Origin: a virus
Taxonomy: Duplodnaviria; Caudoviricetes
Length of the DNA stretch: 61,935 nucleotides
Virus record (IMG/VR): IMGVR_UViG_3300021976_000013
Span: 1 to 61,935 of that record
Strand: one strand, 5' to 3'
This document shows positions 7,551 to 52,975 of this stretch, one piece after another; positions within the stretch are counted from its first letter, which is position 1, and each line of letters begins with the position of its first letter. Both the position numbers and the translations under genes were made by a program. The notes under the pieces were generated by a model, which had not been told where the DNA came from, ran no database searches, and saw only the letters and a program-made list of their open reading frames with translations.

Positions 7551-7996
7551 TGGCGGTCTTCAAGCGGACGTCCGGGACAGAGGAACTTCGGAAGTTCGTT
7601 CGACAGTTTCCGAAATTCCCGGCAGAGATCAGGCGCGAGATCCGGCCGATGCTCCGGAAGATCGGGCAACCTGCTTTGACGGCCGCGCGTCAAAACGCTT
7701 CGTATTCGACTCGAATTCCCAAAGCGACAAAGCTCTCTGTCCTGCTCTCGAAAAAGGGGGCTGGACTTCGGCTGACTACCAGCATCGCGGCGGCCGACGA
7801 CTCCCGAGCGCTTGAGCACAGAGGACAACCGGGCATGTTCCGGCACCCCGTCAATCCGAGTAAGACGGTTTGGGTCAATCAGAAAGCGCGTCCGTTCCTT
7901 TGGCCTGCGGTCGAACCGATCACCAAATCAGTCGATAACGAGATCGGGACGATCGTAGATCAGGTTGCCCGCGCTCACGGATTCAGAGGGAGATGA
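7550..7996 (+). CDS. HK97 gp10-like neck protein
   Basis: Basic protein with LEHRG and Q.ARPFL.PA motifs. Confidence 0.7.
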   Translation: MAVFKRTSGTEELRKFVRQFPKFPAEIRREIRPMLRKIGQPALTAARQNASYSTRIPKATKLSVLLSKKGAGLRLTTSIAAADDSRALEHRGQPGMFRHPVNPSKTVWVNQKARPFLWPAVEPITKSVDNEIGTIVDQVARAHGFRGR

Positions 7997-8000
7997 CGGG

Positions 8001-8510
8001 ATGCCACTAAGCACGCAAACACTGATCCAAGTGAATGCGTTCCTGTCGAACACGGGAGCGGATCTTACGGTCCCGTCGGCAAACATCGTGTTCGCGCAAC
8101 AGCTCAATCTCGACACGGGAACGGGCGCTGGCCAGGCGGACAAGGTCTATGTGGACACGAACACGCTCGGCGCGTCAGGCACGGTGGATATCGACTTGGC
8201 GGGCTCGCTGACCGATGCTCTCGGCGCGGCGTTGACCTTCGTCCGGGTGAAAGGGATCTTCATTCGCGCGGCGGTTGGCAACACTAACAACGTCGTACTA
8301 GGTGGCGCGGCGGCGACTCAGTTCGTCGGCCCGTTCGGTGCGGCAGCGCACACGATCGCAGTCCGGCCGGGCGGATTCTTCGGGATCATGTCGCAGGATG
8401 CTACCGGTTGGACGGTCGGCGCTGGCGCGTCGGACTTCCTTCGGGTGGCGAACAGTGCCGCAGGTACGTCAGTGACCTACGACATCCTGATCATCGGCGC
8501 GAGCGCGTAG
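8001..8510 (+). CDS. virion structural protein, paralog 1 of a tandem pair
   Basis: G/A/T-rich, beta-strand-like protein; shares long motifs with 8521-9036. Confidence 0.7.
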   Translation: MPLSTQTLIQVNAFLSNTGADLTVPSANIVFAQQLNLDTGTGAGQADKVYVDTNTLGASGTVDIDLAGSLTDALGAALTFVRVKGIFIRAAVGNTNNVVLGGAAATQFVGPFGAAAHTIAVRPGGFFGIMSQDATGWTVGAGASDFLRVANSAAGTSVTYDILIIGASA

Positions 8511-8520
8511 GGGGGAAACG

Positions 8521-9036
8521 ATGCCACTCGATACACAGTTCGTTACCTCGCTGGCAGCGAATCAGACGGCTACTCCGCTTGACATGTCAGTGTCACCCGT
8601 AGCAGCGCTGGCGTACACCAAGACGATCTCGCTAACCACCGGTACCGGGTTGAACCAAGCCGATCAGATTTTCTTTGATCAGCGAACGATCGCGATCTCC
8701 GGTACGGATGATCTCGATCTGGCAGGCGGCGTCACGCACTCGATCACCGGTGCCGCATTCTCGTTCGCGAGGATCAAAGGGATCCTGATCTATGCGGCCA
8801 TCGCGAACACGAACAATGTGGTCGTCGGTGGCGCGGCGGCGACTCAGTTCGCTACGTGGGTCGGTGCGGCAGCACATACGGTCACGGTCCGTCCGGGCGG
8901 GATGTTCATGCTCTTCGCCCCCGATGCCACGGCGTACGCGGTCACGGCCGCAACGGCTGATCTGCTCCGGATCGCCAACTCTGGCGCGGTCTCGACTGTC
9001 CTGTACGACATCATCCTTATCGGCGCGAGCGCATAG
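8521..9036 (+). CDS. virion structural protein, paralog 2 of a tandem pair
   Basis: Shares NTNNVV.GGAAATQF, GAAAHT..VRPGG, LR.ANS and YDI..IGASA with the previous gene. Confidence 0.7.
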   Translation: MPLDTQFVTSLAANQTATPLDMSVSPVAALAYTKTISLTTGTGLNQADQIFFDQRTIAISGTDDLDLAGGVTHSITGAAFSFARIKGILIYAAIANTNNVVVGGAAATQFATWVGAAAHTVTVRPGGMFMLFAPDATAYAVTAATADLLRIANSGAVSTVLYDIILIGASA

Positions 9037-18094: not shown

Positions 18095-18192
18095 TCTGAC
18101 CTGGGGAAATCCCTATCTCGGGTAGGGTGGCATACGGGTACCCAACCTAGGGTTGAAGCCCTTAGCGTGGCTCTCAGGGCCGTCTAGGGGCA
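18095..18192 (+). repeat. dispersed ~100-bp element, copy A
   Basis: TCTGACCTGGGGAAATCCCTATCTC...TAGCGTGGCTCTCAGGGCCGTCTAGGGGCA. Confidence 0.8.
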
Positions 18193-34232: not shown

Positions 34233-34328
34233 TCTGACCTGCGGAAATCCCTATCTCCAAGGGGGCCATCCGGGTATACCTAACTAGGGGTGTAACCCCA
34301 CACAGAGCATCTCAGGGCCGTCTAGGGC
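34233..34328 (+). repeat. dispersed ~100-bp element, copy C
   Basis: TCTGACCTGCGGAAATCCCTATCTC...TCTCAGGGCCGTCTAGGG. Confidence 0.8.
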
Positions 34329-34509
34329 TAAATCACGGAGAGTGACAAAGTGGAGATCGTCCAACTGCTAGAGATCATTCTGGTCATGCTCTGCACGTTG
34401 GAGGTGATCATCCTGATCAAGATCCTAATTCTCCTGATCAAGATGGAGAAACCGATAGAGATCATTCAGACCCCGTTCAAGATCCACACCACCGAAGATC
34501 GGACAGAAA

Positions 34510-42133: not shown

Positions 42134-42245
42134 AGGGGTCGCCAAGGCTCTATCTCGAAAGGGTTGATAGGGATGGGTGCAGACGGGGGGTAAGGCCGGG
42201 AGCGTGGCTCTCAGGGCCGTCCAGGGGCATCAGGGGTCCGACCCT
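42134..42245 (+). repeat. dispersed ~100-bp element, copy D
   Basis: AGGGGTCGCCAAGGCTCTATCTCGA.AGGGTTGATAG...AGCGTGGCTCTCAGGGCCGTCCAGGGGCAT..GGGGTCCGACCCT. Confidence 0.85.
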
Positions 42246-43209: not shown

Positions 43210-43281
43210 GGGGTGTGAGCCTTCCCGACTGCCCCTGACGATCAGGGGCAGTCTGTTGGTTGACGCTTATGTGTCAGTAGG

Positions 43282-43629
43282 TCATGAAGCTTTTTTGATC
43301 TTCCGGTGCCGCTCGATGCGCTCGCGGCGGTTCTCTTCTTTGGTATCCGGCTGGATACATGCCGGGTTGAGGCAGATCGATATCCCACAGCGGTGGGACC
43401 ATTCGCAGCCCTCCGGAAGCGGGCCGTGGAAAGCCTCGCCGACGACCACATGGCCGCGACGGGTGCGCTTGATCTCTTCGACCCATACCGACGGGTAGCC
43501 AGGGTTGCACTGGTTTTGCTTACCGCCACCCCGTGACGTGCCACCTGTCCAGATCCAACAGCCGTCCGGGTTGATCACGCACTTCGCGAAGATCTTTCGC
43601 ATGGTCGGACCTTCGGTTGAGATGATCAT
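43282..43629 (-). CDS. HNH (His-Cys box-like) endonuclease
   Basis: GCWIWTG, GYP, H....E...GP.P.G...H.C....C.NP...T..EN. Confidence 0.8.
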   Translation of the reverse strand: MIISTEGPTMRKIFAKCVINPDGCWIWTGGTSRGGGKQNQCNPGYPSVWVEEIKRTRRGHVVVGEAFHGPLPEGCEWSHRCGISICLNPACIQPDTKEENRRERIERHRKIKKAS

Positions 43630-44018
43630 CACTCGTCCCTGTCGTTGATCCCGTTGGCGTTGTTGTCGGTGACTCCGAACCATGCCAGCGGCGGACCGTC
43701 AGAGCATGGCCCCAGGTCTTCCCACGGGCACGCTGGCGGCCGTTCGGCCGGTGCTTGGTGTCCGAGTAGCCGCTTGAGAACGTGGTCCGTCTTGGGCGTA
43801 CTCAGGGCTTCGGACGCGGCACGGCCGACCTTGGAACCGGCCTTGCCTGCCTCGCGACCGATCGTCTGGTGACCCTCTACCAGAGTGCCGAGATCGTTCG
43901 AGGTCTTGCAGCCTGCGATGAACGCGCCGACGATCAGCATGACCACCGAGAGCCGCTTGAGCTTGCGAGTGATCTTGACCCGGTGGGACTTCGTGATCTT
44001 GGGGAGCTTGATCTTCAT
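43629..44018 (-). CDS. putative lipoprotein
   Basis: Basic N-terminus, hydrophobic core, IAGC lipobox. Confidence 0.6.
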   Translation of the reverse strand: MKIKLPKITKSHRVKITRKLKRLSVVMLIVGAFIAGCKTSNDLGTLVEGHQTIGREAGKAGSKVGRAASEALSTPKTDHVLKRLLGHQAPAERPPACPWEDLGPCSDGPPLAWFGVTDNNANGINDRDE

Positions 44019-44020
44019 GA

Positions 44021-44281
44021 TCAGTTCCACCCCTCGAATCGGAAGCCAAGGTAACCGTTCGCGCGGGTCATCTGCTTGCAGTCGTCGCACGTGAAGATCC
44101 GGAGTTCGGAGCCGGGCCGACCGGTGAAGACCTGCCGACCGAAGCACACAGGGTTGCCACACCTAGCGCTGGCGGTGGCCACGTAGGGAGTCAGCGAGAG
44201 CACGGGGGAGTGCGGGATGCTGGTCGGCGCGTCGGGAAGGTCGGCCGAGTAGCCGTCATGTCCTTGCGGGTGTACATCCAT
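44021..44281 (-). CDS. small Zn-ribbon protein
   Basis: C....C and C..C motifs; RBS GGAG. Confidence 0.55.
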   Translation of the reverse strand: MDVHPQGHDGYSADLPDAPTSIPHSPVLSLTPYVATASARCGNPVCFGRQVFTGRPGSELRIFTCDDCKQMTRANGYLGFRFEGWN

Positions 44282-44307
44282 TCTTGATCTCCAGTTCTGG
44301 GAGTCTT

Positions 44308-44624
44308 GATCAATTGGACGTTAGTAGGGGCACCCTCGCGGGTGCCCGATGATCACTTTCCCTTACGCTCGCGGCGCTTCTGTTCTCTTTCTGCGGCAGC
44401 AGCTCCCCAACGACCGCTACGAAGATCACTTATGCGATCTTGCATTCTCTGGTGATCTCGTCTGAGTTCGGCATCCCAACGGAAGAACATGGTGGCGATG
44501 GCGATGAACGGAACGGAGACGGCGATCAAGACGGAGATAAAAACGATGGTGTCCGACATGCTGTGATCCTTTCTGTCGGCTGTAGATCAATTGGACGTTA
44601 GTAGGGGCACCCTCGCGGGTGCCC
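44308..44624. repeat. identical 40-bp direct repeats (44308-44347, 44585-44624) flanking one gene
   Basis: GATCAATTGGACGTTAGTAGGGGCACCCTCGCGGGTGCCC twice. Confidence 0.95.
44353..44559 (-). CDS. small membrane protein
   Basis: N-terminal TM; RBS AAAGGA. Confidence 0.65.
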   Translation of the reverse strand: MSDTIVFISVLIAVSVPFIAIATMFFRWDAELRRDHQRMQDRISDLRSGRWGAAAAEREQKRRERKGK

Positions 44625-44640
44625 CTTTGTCGGCCGTAGA

Positions 44641-45303
44641 TCACTTCAAGGTGATCTTGGGGGCCTTGGCGTAGGTCCATCCGTACTTGTTCGCGCACCA
44701 CTTGCCGAACCCGTTGAAGATCGAGTTCTCATCGGTCAGCGTCTTCGCGCATGCACAGCAGGTGCCGTACAGACAACCGAAAGCCTTGGCTTGCTCAGTG
44801 GTCATCTTGTGCTCGGGACGAAGCCGGGCGACGATGCCGGGAGCGTAGTCGAAATGTGCTTCGGCCGGACGGACGACCTTGCCGTCCTCGAAGATCGCCG
44901 GGACGTCGGTGACCAGGACCTTGGCGTACATCTTGCCGGATCCGTGGACGGCTTTCTGAACCTTGTAGATCTTCATCTCCGGGCCGTTGTCGAGACTGAC
45001 CATGTACATACCAGCCTCAAGATCGGCAGCGGGCGCGGGAGTGGCCGGGTTGCTCGGGAGATTGACCTTGGGCGTGTCGAGCAGGAGCTTGATCATGCGA
45101 CTGGCGTCACGCTTGCTCAGCGTGCTGATCTCGACGACGCTGCCGGACGTGGGGTCTTCCATCTTGTTCCATGCCAGGTCAAGCATCTTCCATCCGCGCT
45201 CGGTGCAGAGCTTGACGATGAAGTTGATCTGCTTGTCGCTGGCGTCCATCGTGTTCGGGCCGAAGGGGTCACTCTCGCGAAGCTGGCGGGTGGCAGTCCT
45301 CAT
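44641..45303 (-). CDS. DUF6011-like Zn-finger protein
   Basis: AS.KQ..FI; A..FG....C..C...LTD..S...G.G..CA. Confidence 0.75.
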   Translation of the reverse strand: MRTATRQLRESDPFGPNTMDASDKQINFIVKLCTERGWKMLDLAWNKMEDPTSGSVVEISTLSKRDASRMIKLLLDTPKVNLPSNPATPAPAADLEAGMYMVSLDNGPEMKIYKVQKAVHGSGKMYAKVLVTDVPAIFEDGKVVRPAEAHFDYAPGIVARLRPEHKMTTEQAKAFGCLYGTCCACAKTLTDENSIFNGFGKWCANKYGWTYAKAPKITLK

Positions 45304-45369
45304 GATCTTGTCCCTTTCTGGGAATTTTTGGCCGACCGACCGGGGGCAGATCCCCCGGTCGGCTGAAGC

Positions 45370-45552
45370 TTAAGAGTCAGAGACGGGCGGGTTGATGATC
45401 AGGTTGAATTCTTGATCACGCTCGGCGTCGATCGTGTCGAGGTAGAGATCGTGCTCACAGCGTGCGGTGCACTTGGTGCACCACTGTGTGATCAACACGT
45501 CCCCGTAGTCGGGCAGGTCTTTGATCAGCTCACGAAGCTCGCCGATCTTCAT
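45370..45552 (-). CDS. hypothetical protein
   Basis: MKIGELRE.I.DLP start after an RBS. Confidence 0.6.
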   Translation of the reverse strand: MKIGELRELIKDLPDYGDVLITQWCTKCTARCEHDLYLDTIDAERDQEFNLIINPPVSDS

Positions 45553-45556
45553 GTGA

Positions 45557-45709
45557 TCACCTTCCGTCGCAGCCGTGGCAAGCACAGCTTGTGCAGTTCT
45601 CGCAGTGCTCGCTGAACGGGAAGGTGCATCCCTCGCAGCAGTCACAGAGGAAAGGACCTTGGCCACAGTGCTCGCAGACGGTCCCGATGATGTTCACGCG
45701 CTCTTTCAT
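45557..45709 (-). CDS. 50-aa Cys-rich, metallothionein-like peptide (below the ORF-track cutoff)
   Basis: MKERVNIIGTVCEHCGQGPFLCDCCEGCTFPFSEHCENCTSCACHGCDGR; RBS GGAAGAG. Confidence 0.65.
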   Translation of the reverse strand: MKERVNIIGTVCEHCGQGPFLCDCCEGCTFPFSEHCENCTSCACHGCDGR

Positions 45710-45762
45710 GATCTCTTCCGATCGTTAGTGAGCCGGGAGCCAAACGCTCCCGGCTGATCTTG

Positions 45763-45969
45763 CTAGTTCTTGATCGAGTAGTAGGACTGCTGATCTTCGT
45801 CATTGAAGATCCGCTCGACGAGCCCTTTGCGAAGCAGGGCTTCGGCCGGGCCGATCTTGAATCCGGGGAGCGCGGTCCGAGCGAAGGCGAGGTTGCCACC
45901 GGGGAACGGCTTGCCGTAGCTCCGGAGAGCCTCAAGGCATTTGGTCTGTGCGGGAGTCAGTTCGACCAT
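45763..45969 (-). CDS. small wHTH-like protein
   Basis: LT.AQ..L..L...AL..KGLV. Confidence 0.55.
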   Translation of the reverse strand: MVELTPAQTKCLEALRSYGKPFPGGNLAFARTALPGFKIGPAEALLRKGLVERIFNDEDQQSYYSIKN

Positions 45970-46008
45970 GGTGATCACTCTCTCTGTTTGGATCTTTAGG
46001 GTCTTTCT

Positions 46009-46135
46009 GGTCGAGCAATTCAGTTAGCCCTGAAAGGGGATCCTTATCGAGTATCCGAGCGGGAGGATCATTCCCGGCTTTCGCTCCGCGTGGCCGGGTG
46101 ATCCGGCCCTTCGGGGCTACTAGCTGTTCTCTTGT
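46009..46135 (-). ncRNA. structured leader RNA, copy 1
   Basis: Follows promoter TTGACA-17-TAGATT; homologous to 47097-47227 with a compensatory change. Confidence 0.7.
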
Positions 46136-46253
46136 AAGACCCAATCTAGTCAGAGCTTGCCAAGGTGTCAAGGAGATATGTCCGGTTCAAAAGTCACGGT
46201 CATGTAACGCTTTTAGGGTGAAGCTGGGGAGTCCCGAAGGACTCCCCACAAGA

Positions 46254-47042
46254 TCACACTTCCTCGAAGCTCTTGTCGCATGCTCCGCAAGTAACTTCGG
46301 CCGTCTCGAATGCGGTCCGGCTCATGCGCAAGATCCGAGGCTTGTCGCAGCCGCAGACGGCTTTGATGTTGTTCCGGCTCACGGTGGTCGTGGGGGTCTT
46401 GGCGCGCGGGATCCGGATCGTCGTCCCACCGGTGGTCGTTCCGCCGGTCGTACTGGAGTCTCCGAAGCCGGGGAGGTAGGTCTTGATCGCGGCGTCAAGA
46501 GCCTTGATCTCTGCGGCGTACCGAGCCTTGCCAGCTTCGGTGAAGGTGACCGCGCTGAAACCGTGCGTCGTGTCGGGGTCGAGCACTTCCTTGCCCTTGG
46601 CGTTGACCTTGGTGTGCTGGTAGTCAAGGCCAAGCTCGCGGCAGATCTCGACGAAGATCATGTTGTGGTAGCGGTTGCCCCTGCTCGTGTCCTGCTCTTC
46701 GCGGACAGCGGCGATTGCGTGCGCGGCTTCGTGCAGGAGGCTCTGCATGGTCAGCTCAGCGCCACATGCGAGACGCTCACCGGAGATGAACAGCTCGGCT
46801 CGCTTGCTCTTGTCGTTCTTGTCTTCCCAACGCTCGCGCCAGAAGTGCGCCCACTTCGCGCCCATCAGGTCGAGCCCGGATCCGGTGATCATAAGGACTT
46901 CGGGAACGTCCAGGTTCTTTGCGATGATCGCTTTCCAAGCGGCTTCCAGAGCCTTGATCAGTTCCGATCCGGTCTGCGGGCGGGTCTTACGAACGCGCGG
47001 CTTGCGGGTGGCGGGCTTGCGGGCGGTAGTAGCAGTAGCCAT
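46254..47042 (-). CDS. SprT-like Zn metalloprotease with C-terminal Zn ribbon
   Basis: LLHEAAH, YH...F and C.C...C..C motifs. Confidence 0.8.
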   Translation of the reverse strand: MATATTARKPATRKPRVRKTRPQTGSELIKALEAAWKAIIAKNLDVPEVLMITGSGLDLMGAKWAHFWRERWEDKNDKSKRAELFISGERLACGAELTMQSLLHEAAHAIAAVREEQDTSRGNRYHNMIFVEICRELGLDYQHTKVNAKGKEVLDPDTTHGFSAVTFTEAGKARYAAEIKALDAAIKTYLPGFGDSSTTGGTTTGGTTIRIPRAKTPTTTVSRNNIKAVCGCDKPRILRMSRTAFETAEVTCGACDKSFEEV

Positions 47043-47096
47043 GATCAGTCCCTTTCTGGGATCTTGCTCGGGTCAGTCTGTCGGTTGATCTTTAGT

Positions 47097-47227
47097 GGTC
47101 GAGCGATTCAGTTAGCCCTGAAGAAGGGGTTCCTTGTCCTTGAATCCGAGAGGGAGGAACGGTCCCCGCTTTGGCTCTGCGCGACCGGGTGATCCGGCCC
47201 TTCGGAGCTACTCACTTGTTCTCTTGT
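47097..47227 (-). ncRNA. structured leader RNA, copy 2
   Basis: Homologous to 46009-46135; operators at 47248 and 47281 upstream. Confidence 0.7.
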
Positions 47228-47337
47228 CTCTTAAGAGTCGCTCATAGCTTGACCCATGGACAATAGCGCCAAGGCTATAGCTTGCTTACCTGTCAAAGTT
47301 CCCTGATCAGGGCATGCGAAGAGCCGCACAGCGACAA

Positions 47338-47445
47338 TGCCCCTGTACGGCTCTGTAGTCCACGCTAAGGGGTTCTACCCCTAGTCAGGTATACCCGGAC
47401 CAGTCTTCGACGATCAAGGTGTCCGAGTCTTTGACCTGCGGAAAC
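47338..47445 (-). repeat. dispersed ~100-bp element, copy E
   Basis: Reverse complement matches 52868-52975. Confidence 0.85.
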
Positions 47446-47454
47446 GTCCGGTTC

Positions 47455-48057
47455 CTAGATCTCTCGTCGGCCGAGCGGACCCATGCCATCAAGTCGGCCG
47501 GACCAGCGGTAGAACGATGATCCTTCATGCGGGTCCGAGCTTCCGCGCCATTCGATGTTGGTCCGATTGATCATTCCGACTCCGAACAGTTCCGTGTGCT
47601 GGTAGCCACCCCGGAACATGACCTTCTGCCGGTGAAGATCGTTGATCTCGACGGCACCCGGACCGACGGCGATGATCTCCACTCGCCACGATGCTTGACC
47701 GGGGATCTTGGCGTACATGCCAGCATGATCGGGAACGTATTGCGGCTTGATCTTGTGTTGACAGATCTTGCATCGGTACGTGATCTTCTGGCGGTCCCAC
47801 GGTCCGTCGTCCGGATCGTTCTCGTGAATGATCTTGACGTGCTTGTCGAGCGTCGGCAGCGTGTATTGATCATCTCCGAACGGGTCGTAGCCGAACGCGT
47901 GGAAGTGGCCGGAAGGATCTACGGCCGACCAGTCGGGATCCGGCTTGACTGAACCCATGCTCGGGACGTCGATCATCGGCTGTTCGTAGATCATGGTGAC
48001 GTCGGTCATAAGATCTTTCTCATTGATCAGCGCGTAGTCCATCGAAGCGACTTGCAT
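47455..48057 (-). CDS. hypothetical protein
   Basis: ORF with CxxC and D..GH.H. Confidence 0.6.
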   Translation of the reverse strand: MQVASMDYALINEKDLMTDVTMIYEQPMIDVPSMGSVKPDPDWSAVDPSGHFHAFGYDPFGDDQYTLPTLDKHVKIIHENDPDDGPWDRQKITYRCKICQHKIKPQYVPDHAGMYAKIPGQASWRVEIIAVGPGAVEINDLHRQKVMFRGGYQHTELFGVGMINRTNIEWRGSSDPHEGSSFYRWSGRLDGMGPLGRREI

Positions 48058-48059
48058 GA

Positions 48060-48728
48060 TCAGAATCCTCTCGCGAATTGGATGATCTGGTAAGCCAGCG
48101 TGACCAAGATCCCGATCACGACGGCTACGAAAAAGATCTTCTCTCCTGTCTTGCCGGTGGTGAAGAGATCGAGCGTGTACCGGCGCTTGGACAGTGGCCA
48201 GAAGATCGGGCACCCTCGATCGGTGAGGCAGTCACCGGCGATGTGCACGAACGCGCCAAGCATGAGTGCGGCTGGCACGATCCGGAGATCGATATCCGTG
48301 AGCCACACCACCAAGATCACTATGACTGCGGCGGCTATGTCGTCGATCCATCCGGGGATCTTGGCGAGTCGGACCACTGCGGCCACCGAGAGGACCATGA
48401 GCCAGCACAACGCGATCAAGCCAGCGGGTGAATGCCGGTAGATCAAGGCCATTTGCGCGCCGATGCCGAGCACGACCACGAACAAGATCGAATGTGTGCC
48501 ATGCCGGTGCGGGCCGAACACGAAAATGATCAATCTGCTGGATACCCACGAGAGCGGTCCGAGTGATCGCGTCATCGTCGCCTTGTGATGATCAAGGTCG
48601 TTGATCATCGCTGCCCCGGTAGTGATCAGTAGGCCGACCAGAACGCTGGTCATGCCAAGATCCCAAAGCAACGTGGCACCCCCGAATGCGAGGGTGCCAG
48701 TAGCCGCGTGCGTTCGACCAAGAGCCAC
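48060..48728 (-). CDS. membrane-bound metal-dependent hydrolase (YdjM-like)
   Basis: TH, D.DH, HR..THS and H..GD.LT..G.P.FWP motifs; multiple TMs. Confidence 0.85.
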   Translation of the reverse strand: MALGRTHAATGTLAFGGATLLWDLGMTSVLVGLLITTGAAMINDLDHHKATMTRSLGPLSWVSSRLIIFVFGPHRHGTHSILFVVVLGIGAQMALIYRHSPAGLIALCWLMVLSVAAVVRLAKIPGWIDDIAAAVIVILVVWLTDIDLRIVPAALMLGAFVHIAGDCLTDRGCPIFWPLSKRRYTLDLFTTGKTGEKIFFVAVVIGILVTLAYQIIQFARGF

Positions 48729-49494: not shown

Positions 49495-49591
49495 CTTGCC
49501 ATCCGGGCAAGGTACCTATCAGGTACGCTTGACTACAGGGCAAGGGTGATCCATACTGGAGGCTTACGTACCTGATTGACACACAGACAAG
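49495..49591. promoter_or_regulatory. divergent promoter region with three 17-bp operators
   Basis: Operators at 49495, 49528 and 49575; TTGACT-17-CATACT promoter for the tra/spd operon. Confidence 0.75.
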
Positions 49592-49923: not shown

Positions 49924-51060
49924 ATGAGCATTCTCAGCAAGCCGAAGCCCAAGCCGCTATCGGTTAAGATCAAGGAAGCTGCGCAGCTTGCCGAGCTTGA
50001 CGCGGTCGAGCGGGCCGCACAGTTCAAGCGCGAGCAGGAAGAGGCCGAGCGGAACGTCTGGCGTGCGGAGCAGGCCAAAGCGGCACGTACCGAAACGGCC
50101 GAGCTGACCAAGTCGGCACGTGCCGCGCGGCTGGCCGAGATGGTTCCGTACATTCCACTGATCTTGGTGAACGTTGCGGCGATCACCGGTCAGTACGGGT
50201 GGGCGATCGACAACCTGACGGAGATCGGCAGCGACACGCATGATCCCGTTCGGTGGCTGGCCGCCGCTCTGTTCGCCTTCACGGCTGAATCGATCGCTCT
50301 GTTCCTTCAGTACTACGCGAACCGAGCGTTGCGGAACCGGGACAGCGCGTTGACCTTGTACCTGTCGGCCTTCCTGGTCGCCGGTCTGGTCGCGACGGTC
50401 AACTACTCGCACTGGTCAACGCACAGTTCGGACAAAGATCTCTTGGGATCTCCGACTCCGACGGCCGTGATCTTCGCCCTCTGTTCGCTGGCTTCCCCGT
50501 GGCTCTGGCGGATCCACAACCGGGCTGAGTACCGGGAGGTTCTGAAGAAAGCCGGGGAGATCGACACTCGCGCGGTCAAGCTCTCGCTAGCTCGCAAGAT
50601 CATGCACCCGTACCGGTCTTTCATGGTCATCTGGAATTCGTCGTGGAAGGGTGACCAGACTCCGGCCGAAGCGGTCGCGGCATGGGACAAGATCCATGAC
50701 GAGAGGGTCGCTCGCAAGATCGAGCGGAAGCGTCAGGCGCGGGCCGACAAGGCGGCTGAGAGGGCCGCTAAGGCAGAGCCGGTACCGGCAGACCAGGAAG
50801 CCGTGATCAAGCCGCAGGCACCGGCTCAGCGCGCTCCCAAGGCACCTGCGGGCGTAGGCGTGGGACCGAGCCATCCGAAGTGGGCGGAAGGCGTTCGGAT
50901 CTACGAAGCGAGCAAGGCAGGTCCGGGACGTTCGCTCAGTCAGCGTGATCTAGCAGGGCATCTCAACATGAGCAATAGAGATCTTGCTACCGCGATCAAG
51001 AAATTCGTAGACGAAAGAGATCAAAATGCGATCAACAACGTTGCGCCTTCGTCCCCCTGA
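49924..51060 (+). CDS. SpdB2/DUF2637-like spread protein
   Basis: N-terminal coiled coil, four TM helices, Pro/Ala linker, C-terminal HTH (SQRDLA..L.MS). Confidence 0.65.
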   Translation: MSILSKPKPKPLSVKIKEAAQLAELDAVERAAQFKREQEEAERNVWRAEQAKAARTETAELTKSARAARLAEMVPYIPLILVNVAAITGQYGWAIDNLTEIGSDTHDPVRWLAAALFAFTAESIALFLQYYANRALRNRDSALTLYLSAFLVAGLVATVNYSHWSTHSSDKDLLGSPTPTAVIFALCSLASPWLWRIHNRAEYREVLKKAGEIDTRAVKLSLARKIMHPYRSFMVIWNSSWKGDQTPAEAVAAWDKIHDERVARKIERKRQARADKAAERAAKAEPVPADQEAVIKPQAPAQRAPKAPAGVGVGPSHPKWAEGVRIYEASKAGPGRSLSQRDLAGHLNMSNRDLATAIKKFVDERDQNAINNVAPSSP

Positions 51061-52867
51061 TCGGACGACGAAGCGGCAACCGAAGGGCGCTTGGGACGAA
51101 CTGTCCCGAGCGCTGTTTCGCTATCGAGTCGAGTTCTTTCCGATCTTGCTGGCCTTTTGGCTCTATGTGATCACTGCGGTCATGGGACCTCGCCTGCCTT
51201 GGGTAGTACCTGGCACGCTGGCGCTAGGTGCCATCCTGACGTACCAATTCGGTGGCCGGTGGAACCTGCCAAGGTTCCATCTGGCACGCCGGGAGCGTGC
51301 CTATGCGGCGGCCGTGATGGCATGCCTTGGCACGTGGGCATGGTTCGCAGTGGCACTCTCCGAGAGTGCCAAACCGAGCCTGCGATGGACCCTGATCTTG
51401 CTTGGCATGTGCGTGCCACTCTCGATTCCGTGGCTTTGGCACCGACGGATCCAAGGTTCCGTATTGGTCACGTTCGAGCCGATGCGCTCGGGTGCCAGTC
51501 GGCGCGAAAGTCGGGACTGGAATCGCTGGCACCGGGAGATGACCCACCGTGCGCGCGAAGTGGTCGCGTCGTGGGATGGCATGATCCATGGCACGTCCGC
51601 GCTAGGTTCCAAGCTGGTCGCGATCCATTTCGACGCATGGTCTGTGGAGTGCTCCGTCCGTCTGGCACATGCCAGGGTGGCGGAAGACTTCACCGAGCTA
51701 CGGCTACGGCGGCTTGAGTCTGCCTTCATGGCCAAGCGGGACAGCGCTCGGACTGACTACGCGACCGGTAAGGGTGCCAGCGCTCGGGACGCCAAGATCA
51801 AGTTCATGTTCCAGGATCCGCATGCCGAACCGATCATCCCGACGGATGATGATCTCACTCCGGACATGGATCTGACCGTGGACATCGGGCGGTTCGAGAA
51901 CAACATTCACGTGATCATCGACTTGATCCATACGCTGGTGGCCGGTGCTTCCGGAGCTGGCAAGTCGGCGATCATCAACGCGATCATGCGTGGCTTGATC
52001 CGTAAGCCGCACGTGGCGATCGTAGGGATCGATCTCAAGCCGGGCGGCCTTGAGCTTGGCAAATGGGAAGAGGCGATGTACGCGCTCGCGACGACCGGGC
52101 CGCAGGCCAAGACCCTGCTCACGGGGATCTTGAACGGCATCGGCCGACGCGGCGAGATCATGAAAGCTCGCGGGATCCGGAAGTGGGTCGCGACCGAGGC
52201 AGAGCCGTTCGTGGTCTTGATCATTGACGAAGTCCAAGCGCTGAAAGAGTTCCGGCTGTTCGCCACGCTGACAAAGATCAGTGAGCTGAGCAGGGCATAC
52301 GGCTTCGCGATGATCGTCGCTACTCAACACCCGAAAGATTCCAGCGTGCCGACGGGAGCAATCGCGAACTGCACGCAGCGGATCGGACTTCAGTGCAACG
52401 CGAGCACGGCCGAGCGGCTGATCTTCGATGACAACGCGACTCGGGAGGGCTGGCGGTTGACCAAGCTTCCGGGTGATCGAGAGGGAACCTTCCTGGTCAA
52501 GAGCAAGCGGCACCGTAGGCCGATGCGCGCTCGCTGCCACTGGCTTGACGATCACCATGTCGAGCGGGAAGCAAGATCGTTCGCAGCGACGACGACAGCG
52601 ATCGATCCGGGCACGTGGGGGGATGATCTCTTGGCGATCGATCCGCCCGACGAAGGGACGGAGATCATCGATGTTCAGGTGATCGTCGAGAACGGGCCGG
52701 AAGATGTGATCATGACATTGATCGGTTCCGGCCGGGCTCGGACGCCTTCCAAGATCAGTGAGCTGTCTCAGATCCCTGTACGCACAGTGAATGTCCTGCT
52801 CAAAAAGCTGGCGTCCGAGGGAAAGGTGATCCAAGACGGAGCACGGAAACCATGGTCGCTAACGTGA
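51026..52867 (+). CDS. TraB-like FtsK/SpoIIIE DNA translocase
   Basis: N-terminal TMs; H.LVAGASGAGKS, IDLK.G.EL, LIIDE, RA.G...VATQ.P; C-terminal winged HTH. Confidence 0.9.
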   Translation: MRSTTLRLRPPDRTTKRQPKGAWDELSRALFRYRVEFFPILLAFWLYVITAVMGPRLPWVVPGTLALGAILTYQFGGRWNLPRFHLARRERAYAAAVMACLGTWAWFAVALSESAKPSLRWTLILLGMCVPLSIPWLWHRRIQGSVLVTFEPMRSGASRRESRDWNRWHREMTHRAREVVASWDGMIHGTSALGSKLVAIHFDAWSVECSVRLAHARVAEDFTELRLRRLESAFMAKRDSARTDYATGKGASARDAKIKFMFQDPHAEPIIPTDDDLTPDMDLTVDIGRFENNIHVIIDLIHTLVAGASGAGKSAIINAIMRGLIRKPHVAIVGIDLKPGGLELGKWEEAMYALATTGPQAKTLLTGILNGIGRRGEIMKARGIRKWVATEAEPFVVLIIDEVQALKEFRLFATLTKISELSRAYGFAMIVATQHPKDSSVPTGAIANCTQRIGLQCNASTAERLIFDDNATREGWRLTKLPGDREGTFLVKSKRHRRPMRARCHWLDDHHVEREARSFAATTTAIDPGTWGDDLLAIDPPDEGTEIIDVQVIVENGPEDVIMTLIGSGRARTPSKISELSQIPVRTVNVLLKKLASEGKVIQDGARKPWSLT

Positions 52868-52975
52868 GTTTCCGCAGGTCAGAGACCCGGACCCCTTGAT
52901 CGTCATGAGGTGGTCCGGGTGTACCCAACTAGGGGTGTAGCCCCTTAGAATGCAGCTCAGGGCCGTACAGAGCCA
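52868..52975 (+). repeat. dispersed ~100-bp element, copy F
   Basis: GTTTCCGCAGGTCAGAGAC...CTCAGGGCCGTACAGAGCCA starting right after the traB stop. Confidence 0.85.

Follow-up and report, generated by a model that had tools for sequence, protein, structure and literature searches.

A duplicated leader element, probably a structured cis-acting RNA, behind two early promoters of a soil phage

The duplicated leader and its promoters

The DNA analysed here, referred to below as the window, is the entire IMG/VR virus record IMGVR_UViG_3300021976_000013 (61,935 bp, G+C content 59.5%), of which soil metagenomes carry near-identical contigs. Among its proteins are those of a tailed phage, including a terminase, structural gene products, a D5-type primase/helicase, a DEAD-box helicase, and an FtsK-like ATPase. 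On the minus strand, a leader sequence occurs twice, each time directly behind a predicted early promoter. It measures about 95 nucleotides (nt) from first to last paired base and 115–130 nt with its conserved tails. The comparison of its copies and strain variants makes it likely that this duplicated element is a functional, lineage-specific, structured 5' leader RNA that acts in cis. The copies, their promoters, and the genes behind them are as follows.

46009–46135, minus strand: leader copy 1, found by BLAST, two-copy alignment, and covariance model (160 bits); weaker homology continues to about 45990
47097–47227, minus strand: leader copy 2, found by BLAST, two-copy alignment, and covariance model (166 bits); weaker homology (CTAAAGATC) continues to about 47075
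46143–46171, minus strand: predicted copy-1 promoter TTGACA-17-TAGATT (promoter scan, 10/12 matches), with the palindrome TTGACACCTTGGCAA at 46171–46157 (regular-expression scan)
47249–47263, minus strand: 15-bp operator-like palindrome TTGTCCATGGGTCAA of the copy-2 promoter, overlapping its −35 element (regular-expression scan)
45763–45978, minus strand: gene behind copy 1, 71 amino acids (aa), no family match, G+C fraction at third codon positions (GC3) 0.79
46254–47042, minus strand: gene behind copy 2, SprT-like metalloprotease of 262 aa with HEAAH and a C-terminal CxxC...CxxC, phrog_6361

Copy 1 aligned by BLAST against the full record finds exactly two places, itself and 47096–47227 (83% identity, E-value (E) 6e-33), and the covariance model recognises only the two copies in the window. 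The initial annotation had reported two minus-strand copies here that open with the same sequence, and both observations hold. The conserved block begins with ACAAGAGAACA and ends with GCTCGACCA in each copy, and its edges are sharp. Beyond GCTCGACCA lie an 8-nt indel and a weaker similar patch, CTAAAGATC. Upstream, only the −35 regions are similar and the −10 regions have diverged; downstream, the homology fades before the ribosome-binding sites, and these sites and the genes that follow are unrelated.

The predicted transcription starts fall at the head of the block. In copy 1, positions +1/+2 are T46136/A46135, and in copy 2 position +1 is A47227 (counted by hand), so that the first A of ACAAGAG stands at the predicted +1 or +2 in both. 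Because the start of the block coincides with the predicted +1 of both promoters, the repeated unit appears to be the transcribed leader itself, and we infer that the element is transcribed from these promoters. Among the sequencing runs listed as containing this DNA there is no RNA run, a result that speaks neither for nor against transcription. The copy-1 promoter, TTGACA-17-TAGATT, had been called in the initial annotation; the promoter scan recovers it (46171–46143) as the only sigma-70-like minus-strand site in 41.5–50.5 kb. The copy-2 promoter reads TTGTCC-18-GACTCT (47263–47234; spacing counted by hand), with a putative −10 element GACTCT at 47239–47234.

Both −35 hexamers lie within a 15-bp palindrome, TTGNCN5GNCAA, which agrees with the earlier placement of the copies just downstream of operator sites. 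A regular-expression scan finds 14 such sites in the window (20503, 20829, 21729, 22387, 24400, 27532, 35359, 35808, 46157, 47249, 49496, 49529, 49576, and 52994). Three of them are grouped in operator fashion in a divergent intergenic region (49496–49590), and the palindrome is common to the related loci L013–L018 described below. The set looks like the operators of a repressor or a phage-wide promoter class.

Another palindromic motif, GA(C/T)TCTTAAG(A/T)GACA (window 47225–47239, minus strand), is conserved at the early promoters of L013–L018, upstream of the SprT-like gene. In L016, this motif and the leader start (GATTCTTAAGAGACAACAGC) match a boxA-like stretch, GATTCTTGAGAACTCAACAGCG, of the actinobacterial rrn leader L278 (1253–1280) at 16/22 positions. 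A general reading of the conserved motif CTCTTAAGAG as a transcribed boxA mimic was rejected, since its distance to the −35 element varies (17–19 versus 23–24 nt), which places it at the −10 element itself in half of the promoters. Instead of mimicking boxA, the motif may serve as an operator or as a −10 element.

A shared fold in two copies and a natural variant

The fold was tested on the two-copy alignment (A3), where its helices occupy columns 18–23/110–115 (P1a), 25–28/102–107 (P1b), 29–34/40–45 (P2), and 68–73/94–99 (P3), and a pseudoknot occupies columns 61–64/74–77. The corresponding window positions are given below.

Copy 1 helices, minus strand: P1a 46119–46114/46030–46025; P1b 46112–46109/46036–46033; P2 46108–46103/46097–46092
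Copy 1 core, minus strand: P3 46069–46064/46044–46039; pseudoknot 46076–46073/46063–46060
Copy 2 helices, minus strand: P1a 47210–47205/47118–47113; P1b 47203–47200/47126–47123; P2 47199–47194/47188–47183
Copy 2 core, minus strand: P3 47160–47155/47134–47129; pseudoknot 47167–47164/47154–47151

Standard pairs occur at 26/26 modelled positions in both copies (52/52 cells), while shifting the 3' partners by 1–3 columns as a control reduces pairing to 30–67%. The copies differ at six columns located in helices, and all six keep pairing. Two changes are double-sided (columns 69/98, A-U to U-A in P3; columns 61/77, C-G to G-U in the pseudoknot) and two are one-sided (columns 22/111, C-G to U-G in P1; columns 30/44, G-C to G-U in P2). 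RNAalifold recovers P1a, P2, and P3 when no model is supplied, and copy 1 folds better than its shuffles (z −2.4). Copy 2 contains three G.U pairs that would be A/C mismatches if read on the plus strand; the fold is therefore assigned to the gene-sense transcript. About 16 unpaired nt precede P1, and within the element the unpaired AUCAC loop, CUCGGAU, and AACUGAAU are conserved.

The helices of the initial annotation are largely retained in this model. Its outer stem is P1 (UAGC(C/U)C...GGGCUA plus GAAG/CUUU) and its hairpin is P2 (GGCCGG/CCGG(C/U)C), both with their pairs kept in the two copies, and its compensatory 6-bp helix is P3 (G(A/U)UCCU/AGGA(U/A)C), in which the A-U to U-A change is double-sided. 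The pseudoknot proposed there, GAGC/GCUC versus AGAG/CUCU, had to be given up: its registers differ, and a single register leaves copy 2 with 3/5 of the copy 1 pairs. An alternative pseudoknot, (C/G)GGG with CCC(G/U) at columns 61–64/74–77, is present in both copies. A tail pairing of GAGC (51–54) with GCUC (124–127) was also rejected, as it would be broken in copy 2 by a C-to-A change at position 127 in the strain variant X3 (depth 4.3, possibly an error).

Contigs from four soil sequencing runs were aligned to 45700–47500, and one full-length relative was obtained (X4), a 2,944-nt contig with 98% identity that carries 37 substitutions and 6 gaps in 1,801 nt. In its copy 2, a G-to-A change at RNA position 30 turns a G.U pair of P2 into A-U, so that this pair is of three types across the sequences; positions 106–108 are deleted, and position 109 changes from A to G. 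In its copy 1, one C is deleted from the run at 97–100 and position 105 changes from A to G. The indel and the A-to-G change erase the internal loop of P1 in both copies, leaving a continuous helix of 13 bp in copy 1 and 12 bp in copy 2. Each within-helix change thus maintains or lengthens pairing. The unpaired changes in copy 1 are A to G at position 89, in a loop, and U to C at position 119 of the 3' tail, which is the base of copy 2. In total, copy 1 of X4 differs from the window by 3 substitutions and 1 deletion and copy 2 by 2 substitutions and a 3-nt deletion, a rate of change about that of the surroundings. The 1-nt deletion rules out that the element codes for protein. A leader peptide was likewise rejected: copy 1 contains a 15-codon open reading frame (ORF) with an ATG, but the corresponding start codon is missing from copy 2, and the 1-nt deletion occurs in X4.

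Distribution and genomic setting

Rfam searched at gathering thresholds over the whole window gives no matches, and at E ≤ 10 over 2.1 kb and each copy alone it gives nothing credible, with no family reaching E 0.5 on the correct strand. The sole match on the strand of the element is the S10-Clostridia leader, in copy 1 only, with 11 bits against a gathering threshold of 35.1 (E 4.8). No tRNA-like or tmRNA-like structure was found in the element. The Infernal comparison proposed in the initial annotation has therefore matched no known family at gathering thresholds. The element matches no known RNA family, a statement of newness that rests on Rfam, no targeted literature search having been made.

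Sequence searches gave a similar picture. BLAST against 50,697 GenBank phage records, in near and distant modes, found no match. Exact-pattern scans of IMG/VR returned 0, 2, and 7 loci, all chance matches by eye, and a scan anchored on the promoter motif GACTCTTAAGNGACA returned 46 loci with one match each, none of which fits the covariance model. That model (R1) was also run on 260 loci, comprising 80, 80, and 52 around SprT-like homologues from metagenomes, genomes, and IMG/VR, 2 based on the terminase, and the 46 promoter-motif loci; the set leaves out the Logan contigs of the closest SprT-like protein relatives (P0002 and P0003, 75–76% identity). A first 99 loci gave a single 10.9-bit match (E 5), a further 100 a single 12.9-bit match (E 1.8) in which the tails alone aligned, and the other 61 no match. 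The whole record of the closest IMG/VR relative and 5 actinobacterial genomes gave no match either, and 151 sampled Actinomycetota genomes gave 3 weak matches (E 0.14–0.79 per genome) with mismatched helices, treated as noise; the two genome sets, which have G002 in common, are counted together as 156. The homologue search suggested in the initial annotation was thus carried as far as a working model, which found no credible homologue in the 260 loci or the 156 genomes. Among the loci and genomes searched, the element is known from one soil actinophage lineage and its close strains.

In the closest relatives examined, L013–L018 (52–62% protein identity), the promoters are of this same type, with the palindrome plus GACTCTTAAGAGACA. 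The leaders there begin with similar bases (ACAACAGCAAGG...) and reach the start codon after just 30–45 nt, without the element. Since these leaders start alike and are so short, the element is, on this comparison, a lineage-specific insertion of about 115 nt relative to an ancestral short leader, carried on two promoter-leader cassettes. The 5' tail, being common to the short leaders of the relatives, is probably ancestral leader sequence.

The host is probably an actinobacterium, because proteins of the window have distant matches to Actinoplanes phage phiAsp2 and Streptomyces phages, and homologues of the SprT-like gene lie in prophage-like regions of Jiangella, Nonomuraea, Amycolatopsis, Streptomyces, and other Actinomycetota. 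The counterpart of this gene in Streptomyces phage Samy is annotated as a 'putative DNA dependent metalloprotease'.

Read leftward, the early region consists of a gene block (49157–47455), a copy of another repeat family, a promoter, leader copy 2, the SprT-like gene, and a GC-rich hairpin, and then a second promoter, leader copy 1, the 71-aa gene, a hairpin, and about 10 small genes down to 42335. The earlier description of the element as the head of the leftward early operon is therefore correct as to its position in front of transcription units and needs adjusting as to their rank: the copies head the second and third leftward units, with three leftward genes (49157–47455) and the other repeat upstream. 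The terminator-like features of this region are the following.

46225–46248, minus strand: 10-bp GC-rich, terminator-like hairpin (UGGGGAGUCCUUCGGGACUCCCCA) without U-tract; the copy-1 promoter follows directly
43227–45755, minus strand: downstream leftward genes with five strong hairpins (45755–45731, 45362–45336, 44626–44603, 44347–44328, and 43253–43227)

The many downstream hairpins of the initial annotation are represented by these five, each of at least 8 bp, in the 3.8 kb downstream. A promoter follows none of them: the next ribosome-binding site comes within 20–45 nt, and no TTGNCN5GNCAA promoter lies between. In the relatives L173, L013, and L018, a new promoter palindrome comes immediately behind the equivalent hairpins, which suggests that hairpins of this kind terminate transcription. 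Three more hairpins, located elsewhere in the window, also precede palindromes (20790, 21690, and 35757). In high-GC Gram-positive bacteria, terminators are often without U-tracts, and it is debated how efficient they are.

Several other features of the window were recorded. An exact 40-nt direct repeat (44308–44347 and 44585–44624), which on the minus strand reads as a GC-rich hairpin (GGGCACCCGCGAGGGTGCCC) plus CTACTAACGTCCAATTGATC, flanks a 68-aa gene. The other repeat family has five copies of 60–90 nt with the consensus ...GGTCCGGGTGTACCCAACTAGGGGTnnAACCCCTTAGCGTGGATCTCAGGGCCGTCCAGGGGCA, at 18131–18192, 34269–34330, 42187–42229, and 52914–52975 (plus strand) and about 47400–47340 (minus strand). 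Every copy stands just 3' of a gene and in its orientation, the copies at 52914 and 47400 are then followed by a palindrome promoter, and further copies occur on loose contig ends at 47409–47445 in runs X4 and X7. Rfam has no match for this family, which may mark operon ends or terminate transcription, or may be a further structured RNA. For a 50-aa cysteine-rich protein with several CxxC motifs (45557–45709, minus strand), L016 has a clear counterpart (about 1180–1330) immediately before its SprT-like gene, and this position suggests that the order of early modules has been shuffled. The phage also encodes a YdjM-family membrane hydrolase (48060–48728, minus strand; Pfam PF04307, E 4e-20) and a 613-aa FtsK/SpoIIIE-like ATPase (51026–52867, plus strand; PF01580, phrog_1358). 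A 104-nt direct repeat with 73% identity (8222–8325 and 8748–8851, plus strand, 526 nt apart) lies inside the adjacent ORFs 7965–8510 and 8521–9036, which are probably paralogous structural genes.

Possible roles and relation to known systems

The initial annotation had proposed a multi-junction cis-acting RNA, perhaps a put-like antiterminator. The cis-acting RNA is supported by the block start at the predicted +1, the compensatory and G.U changes between the copies and in a second strain, the strand specificity, and the non-coding character of the element, with one pseudoknot lost from the original model. Masking of the ribosome-binding site and attenuation both appear unlikely as its mode of action, because the spacers between element and AUG differ in length (about 31 versus 55 nt) and in sequence and contain no terminator. 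These spacers, the promoter-less hairpins downstream, and the hairpin-promoter punctuation of the relatives together favour a signal to the elongating polymerase. In such a scheme, each leader would be transcribed from the +1 of a repressor-type early promoter and would fold as a compact domain with the long closing stem P1, the hairpin P2, and an H-type pseudoknot, (C/G)GGG-CCC(G/U), beside P3. The nascent leader would then alter the host RNA polymerase during elongation, on its own in the manner of HK022 put or together with Nus factors or a phage factor in the manner of lambda nut, and transcription from both promoters could pass the five terminator-like hairpins lying between the roughly 10 small downstream genes. 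That the element acts in processive antitermination, as an analogue of put or nut rather than a family member, is the likeliest of the mechanisms considered, yet a tentative proposal that may well be wrong. Its narrower form, a protein-independent put-like antiterminator unrelated in sequence and fold to HK022 put that would act on actinobacterial RNA polymerase through I-shaped (U-tract-less) terminators, is unlikely.

Several observations weigh against this interpretation, beginning with the structure itself. Covariation has almost no power with a sample of two copies plus one or two nearly identical strains (shuffle control, 121/500), copy 2 folds no better than its shuffles (z 0.17), the nested model, with the pseudoknot uncounted, is about 7 kcal/mol less stable in each copy than the minimum free energy (MFE) fold, and the MFE folds of the full leaders are unlike each other. 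In favour of the P3/pseudoknot model, a competing 12-bp helix of GGAUCACCCGGC with GCCGGGAAUGAUCC in the MFE fold of copy 1 has three broken positions in copy 2 (hand count), and the substitutions responsible are those that the model compensates. As for antitermination, all of the hairpins lack a U-tract and may therefore stabilise transcripts instead of terminating them, and promoter-less hairpins also occur, though less densely, in element-free operons of this phage (22199, 29456, 38595, 53593, and 56410). The promoter-leader units stand in tandem 1.1 kb apart, unlike what a long-range antiterminator would need, and no N-like factor turned up in a search limited to Pfam and PHROG scans of neighbouring genes. 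The comparison with put is plausible from context, given the five promoter-less hairpins, and fails on size and two-stem architecture: put as described in PMC9378689 has about 70 nt and two stem-loops, unlike the element with its approximately 95 nt between the P1 ends and its P1, P2, P3, and pseudoknot.

A different role in the same transcript fits these data almost as well and is nearly as likely as antitermination, although taken by itself it is doubtful. The element could be a stability or processing element of the 5' untranslated region (UTR), protecting against 5'-end-dependent RNases or offering a site for RNase III, E, or J, or it could be the operator of an RNA-binding protein, from phage or host, that would set the translation or decay of both messages jointly. 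The structural evidence is equal for these roles, 5' stabilisers typically have such a compact terminal domain with a long closing stem, and the same leader on two different genes would give co-regulation; the downstream hairpins without U-tracts could be 3' stabilisers, and the expression of homologous genes from short leaders in the relatives would make the element an accessory modulator. Some 16 unpaired nt ahead of P1 are nevertheless unfavourable for 5'-end protection, the conserved single-stranded tails and the pseudoknot exceed the needs of a simple stabiliser, and no candidate protein for an operator was identified. The similarity could also be neutral or reside in the DNA, as a duplicated cassette with gene conversion, an insertion resembling a miniature inverted-repeat transposable element (MITE), or a protein-binding site. 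The element is in no relative examined and looks like an insertion of about 115 nt into a short ancestral leader, P1 could pass for a pair of 13-bp terminal inverted repeats, gene conversion would fit the parallel changes that X4 carries in its two copies, and the between-strain rate of change is about that of the surroundings. Such an origin as the whole explanation is improbable, given that the conserved block begins at the transcription start although the −10 regions have diverged, that 6/6 differing helix columns preserve pairing, and that a strand-specific G.U fold is unexplained by the symmetry of duplex DNA. A-T to T-A swaps in both half-sites, moreover, would be incompatible with recognition by a dimeric DNA-binding protein. 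Against a MITE, no target-site duplication is seen, the conserved flanks reach 16–17 nt past the inverted repeat, and the only two copies both stand in a promoter-leader context, with no other in the 260 loci or 156 genomes.

Sensing and catalysis are far less probable. A riboswitch aptamer for a metabolite or ion, controlling both downstream genes, would suit a pseudoknotted, multi-helix 5' UTR domain closed by P1, whose pocket AUCAC, CUCGGAU, and AACUGAAU could line. This reading, raised in the initial annotation, is now disfavoured by the absence of an Rfam family at E 0.5 on the correct strand, by the lack of a terminator/antiterminator or Shine-Dalgarno-sequestering platform common to both copies, by the confinement to a single phage lineage (no credible match in the loci and genomes searched), and by downstream genes, a protease and the 71-aa gene, that suggest no ligand. 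Equally remote is that the leader cleaves itself as a ribozyme or is processed into a small RNA acting in trans. The fold is compact and pseudoknotted, and regulatory RNAs processed from phage leaders have precedents in P4 CI and P1 C4. No Rfam ribozyme family was matched, however, and the small RNA suggested earlier loses ground because no terminator follows the element and same-strand complementary targets of at least 10 nt are only scattered single 10-mers, none of them a convincing antisense target. Hammerhead and hepatitis delta virus (HDV)-like topologies were rejected by hand; the hammerhead core requires CUGANGA, from which CUGAAU(U/C) in the element departs.

The importance of the element depends on which of these roles is correct. 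Cis-acting RNAs that reprogram RNA polymerase are known from very few systems, such as HK022 put and EAR, and to our knowledge none has come from phages of high-GC Gram-positive bacteria. If antitermination is true, the element would be of use as a compact genetic part and for probing elongation control in actinobacteria, and the protein-independent, put-like reading, if true, would add a second, independently evolved class of RNA polymerase-reprogramming RNA. A stabiliser or protein operator would instead be a new but ordinary phage leader motif. The distribution in one lineage restricts both the evidence and the breadth of impact.

Among known systems, put is a signal that suppresses terminators independently of factors via the beta' zinc-binding domain of RNA polymerase. 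In HK022, as summarised in PMC9378689, two similar put RNAs just downstream of early promoters suppress terminators kilobases away without a protein factor, and each consists of about 70 nt with two stem-loops in a V shape and a triplex in stem I. The phage element resembles putL and putR, as that source presents them, in having two similar copies per phage, each on a predicted early transcript just behind a repressor-type promoter and with terminator-like hairpins downstream, and in its proposed action in cis on RNA polymerase. Unlike putL and putR, which belong to divergent operons, both of its copies are on one strand; it has no sequence similarity to put, and its host is presumably an actinobacterium.

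The nut sites of phage lambda, which an N-type protein reads, combine boxA, a spacer, and boxB, the last being a 15-nt hairpin. Like nutL, nutR, and the rrn sites, the element would be a leader signal, with conserved single-stranded tails beside its structure, and it shares with the phage sites their duplication and phage-specific character behind early promoters; unlike lambda nut, it is a multi-helix domain without a 15-nt boxB-like hairpin. The E. coli boxA consensus is given as UGCUCUUUAACA in PMC13753749. The 3' tail of the element, (U/C)GCUCGACC, has YGCUC in common with that published consensus, a resemblance of 5–6 nt that may be chance, and GAGAAC of the 5' tail also occurs in the boxA-like GAUUCUUGAGAACUCAACAG of the actinobacterial rrn leader L278, which may likewise be chance. 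Simple long hairpins that stabilise phage early mRNAs or mark them for RNase III processing are represented by the T7 R sites and the SP82 5' stabiliser. The element is like these in being a repeated, structured part of predicted early transcripts with internal-loop stems 5' of genes, and it differs from them in its multi-branch, pseudoknotted core and in the conservation of its unpaired tails.

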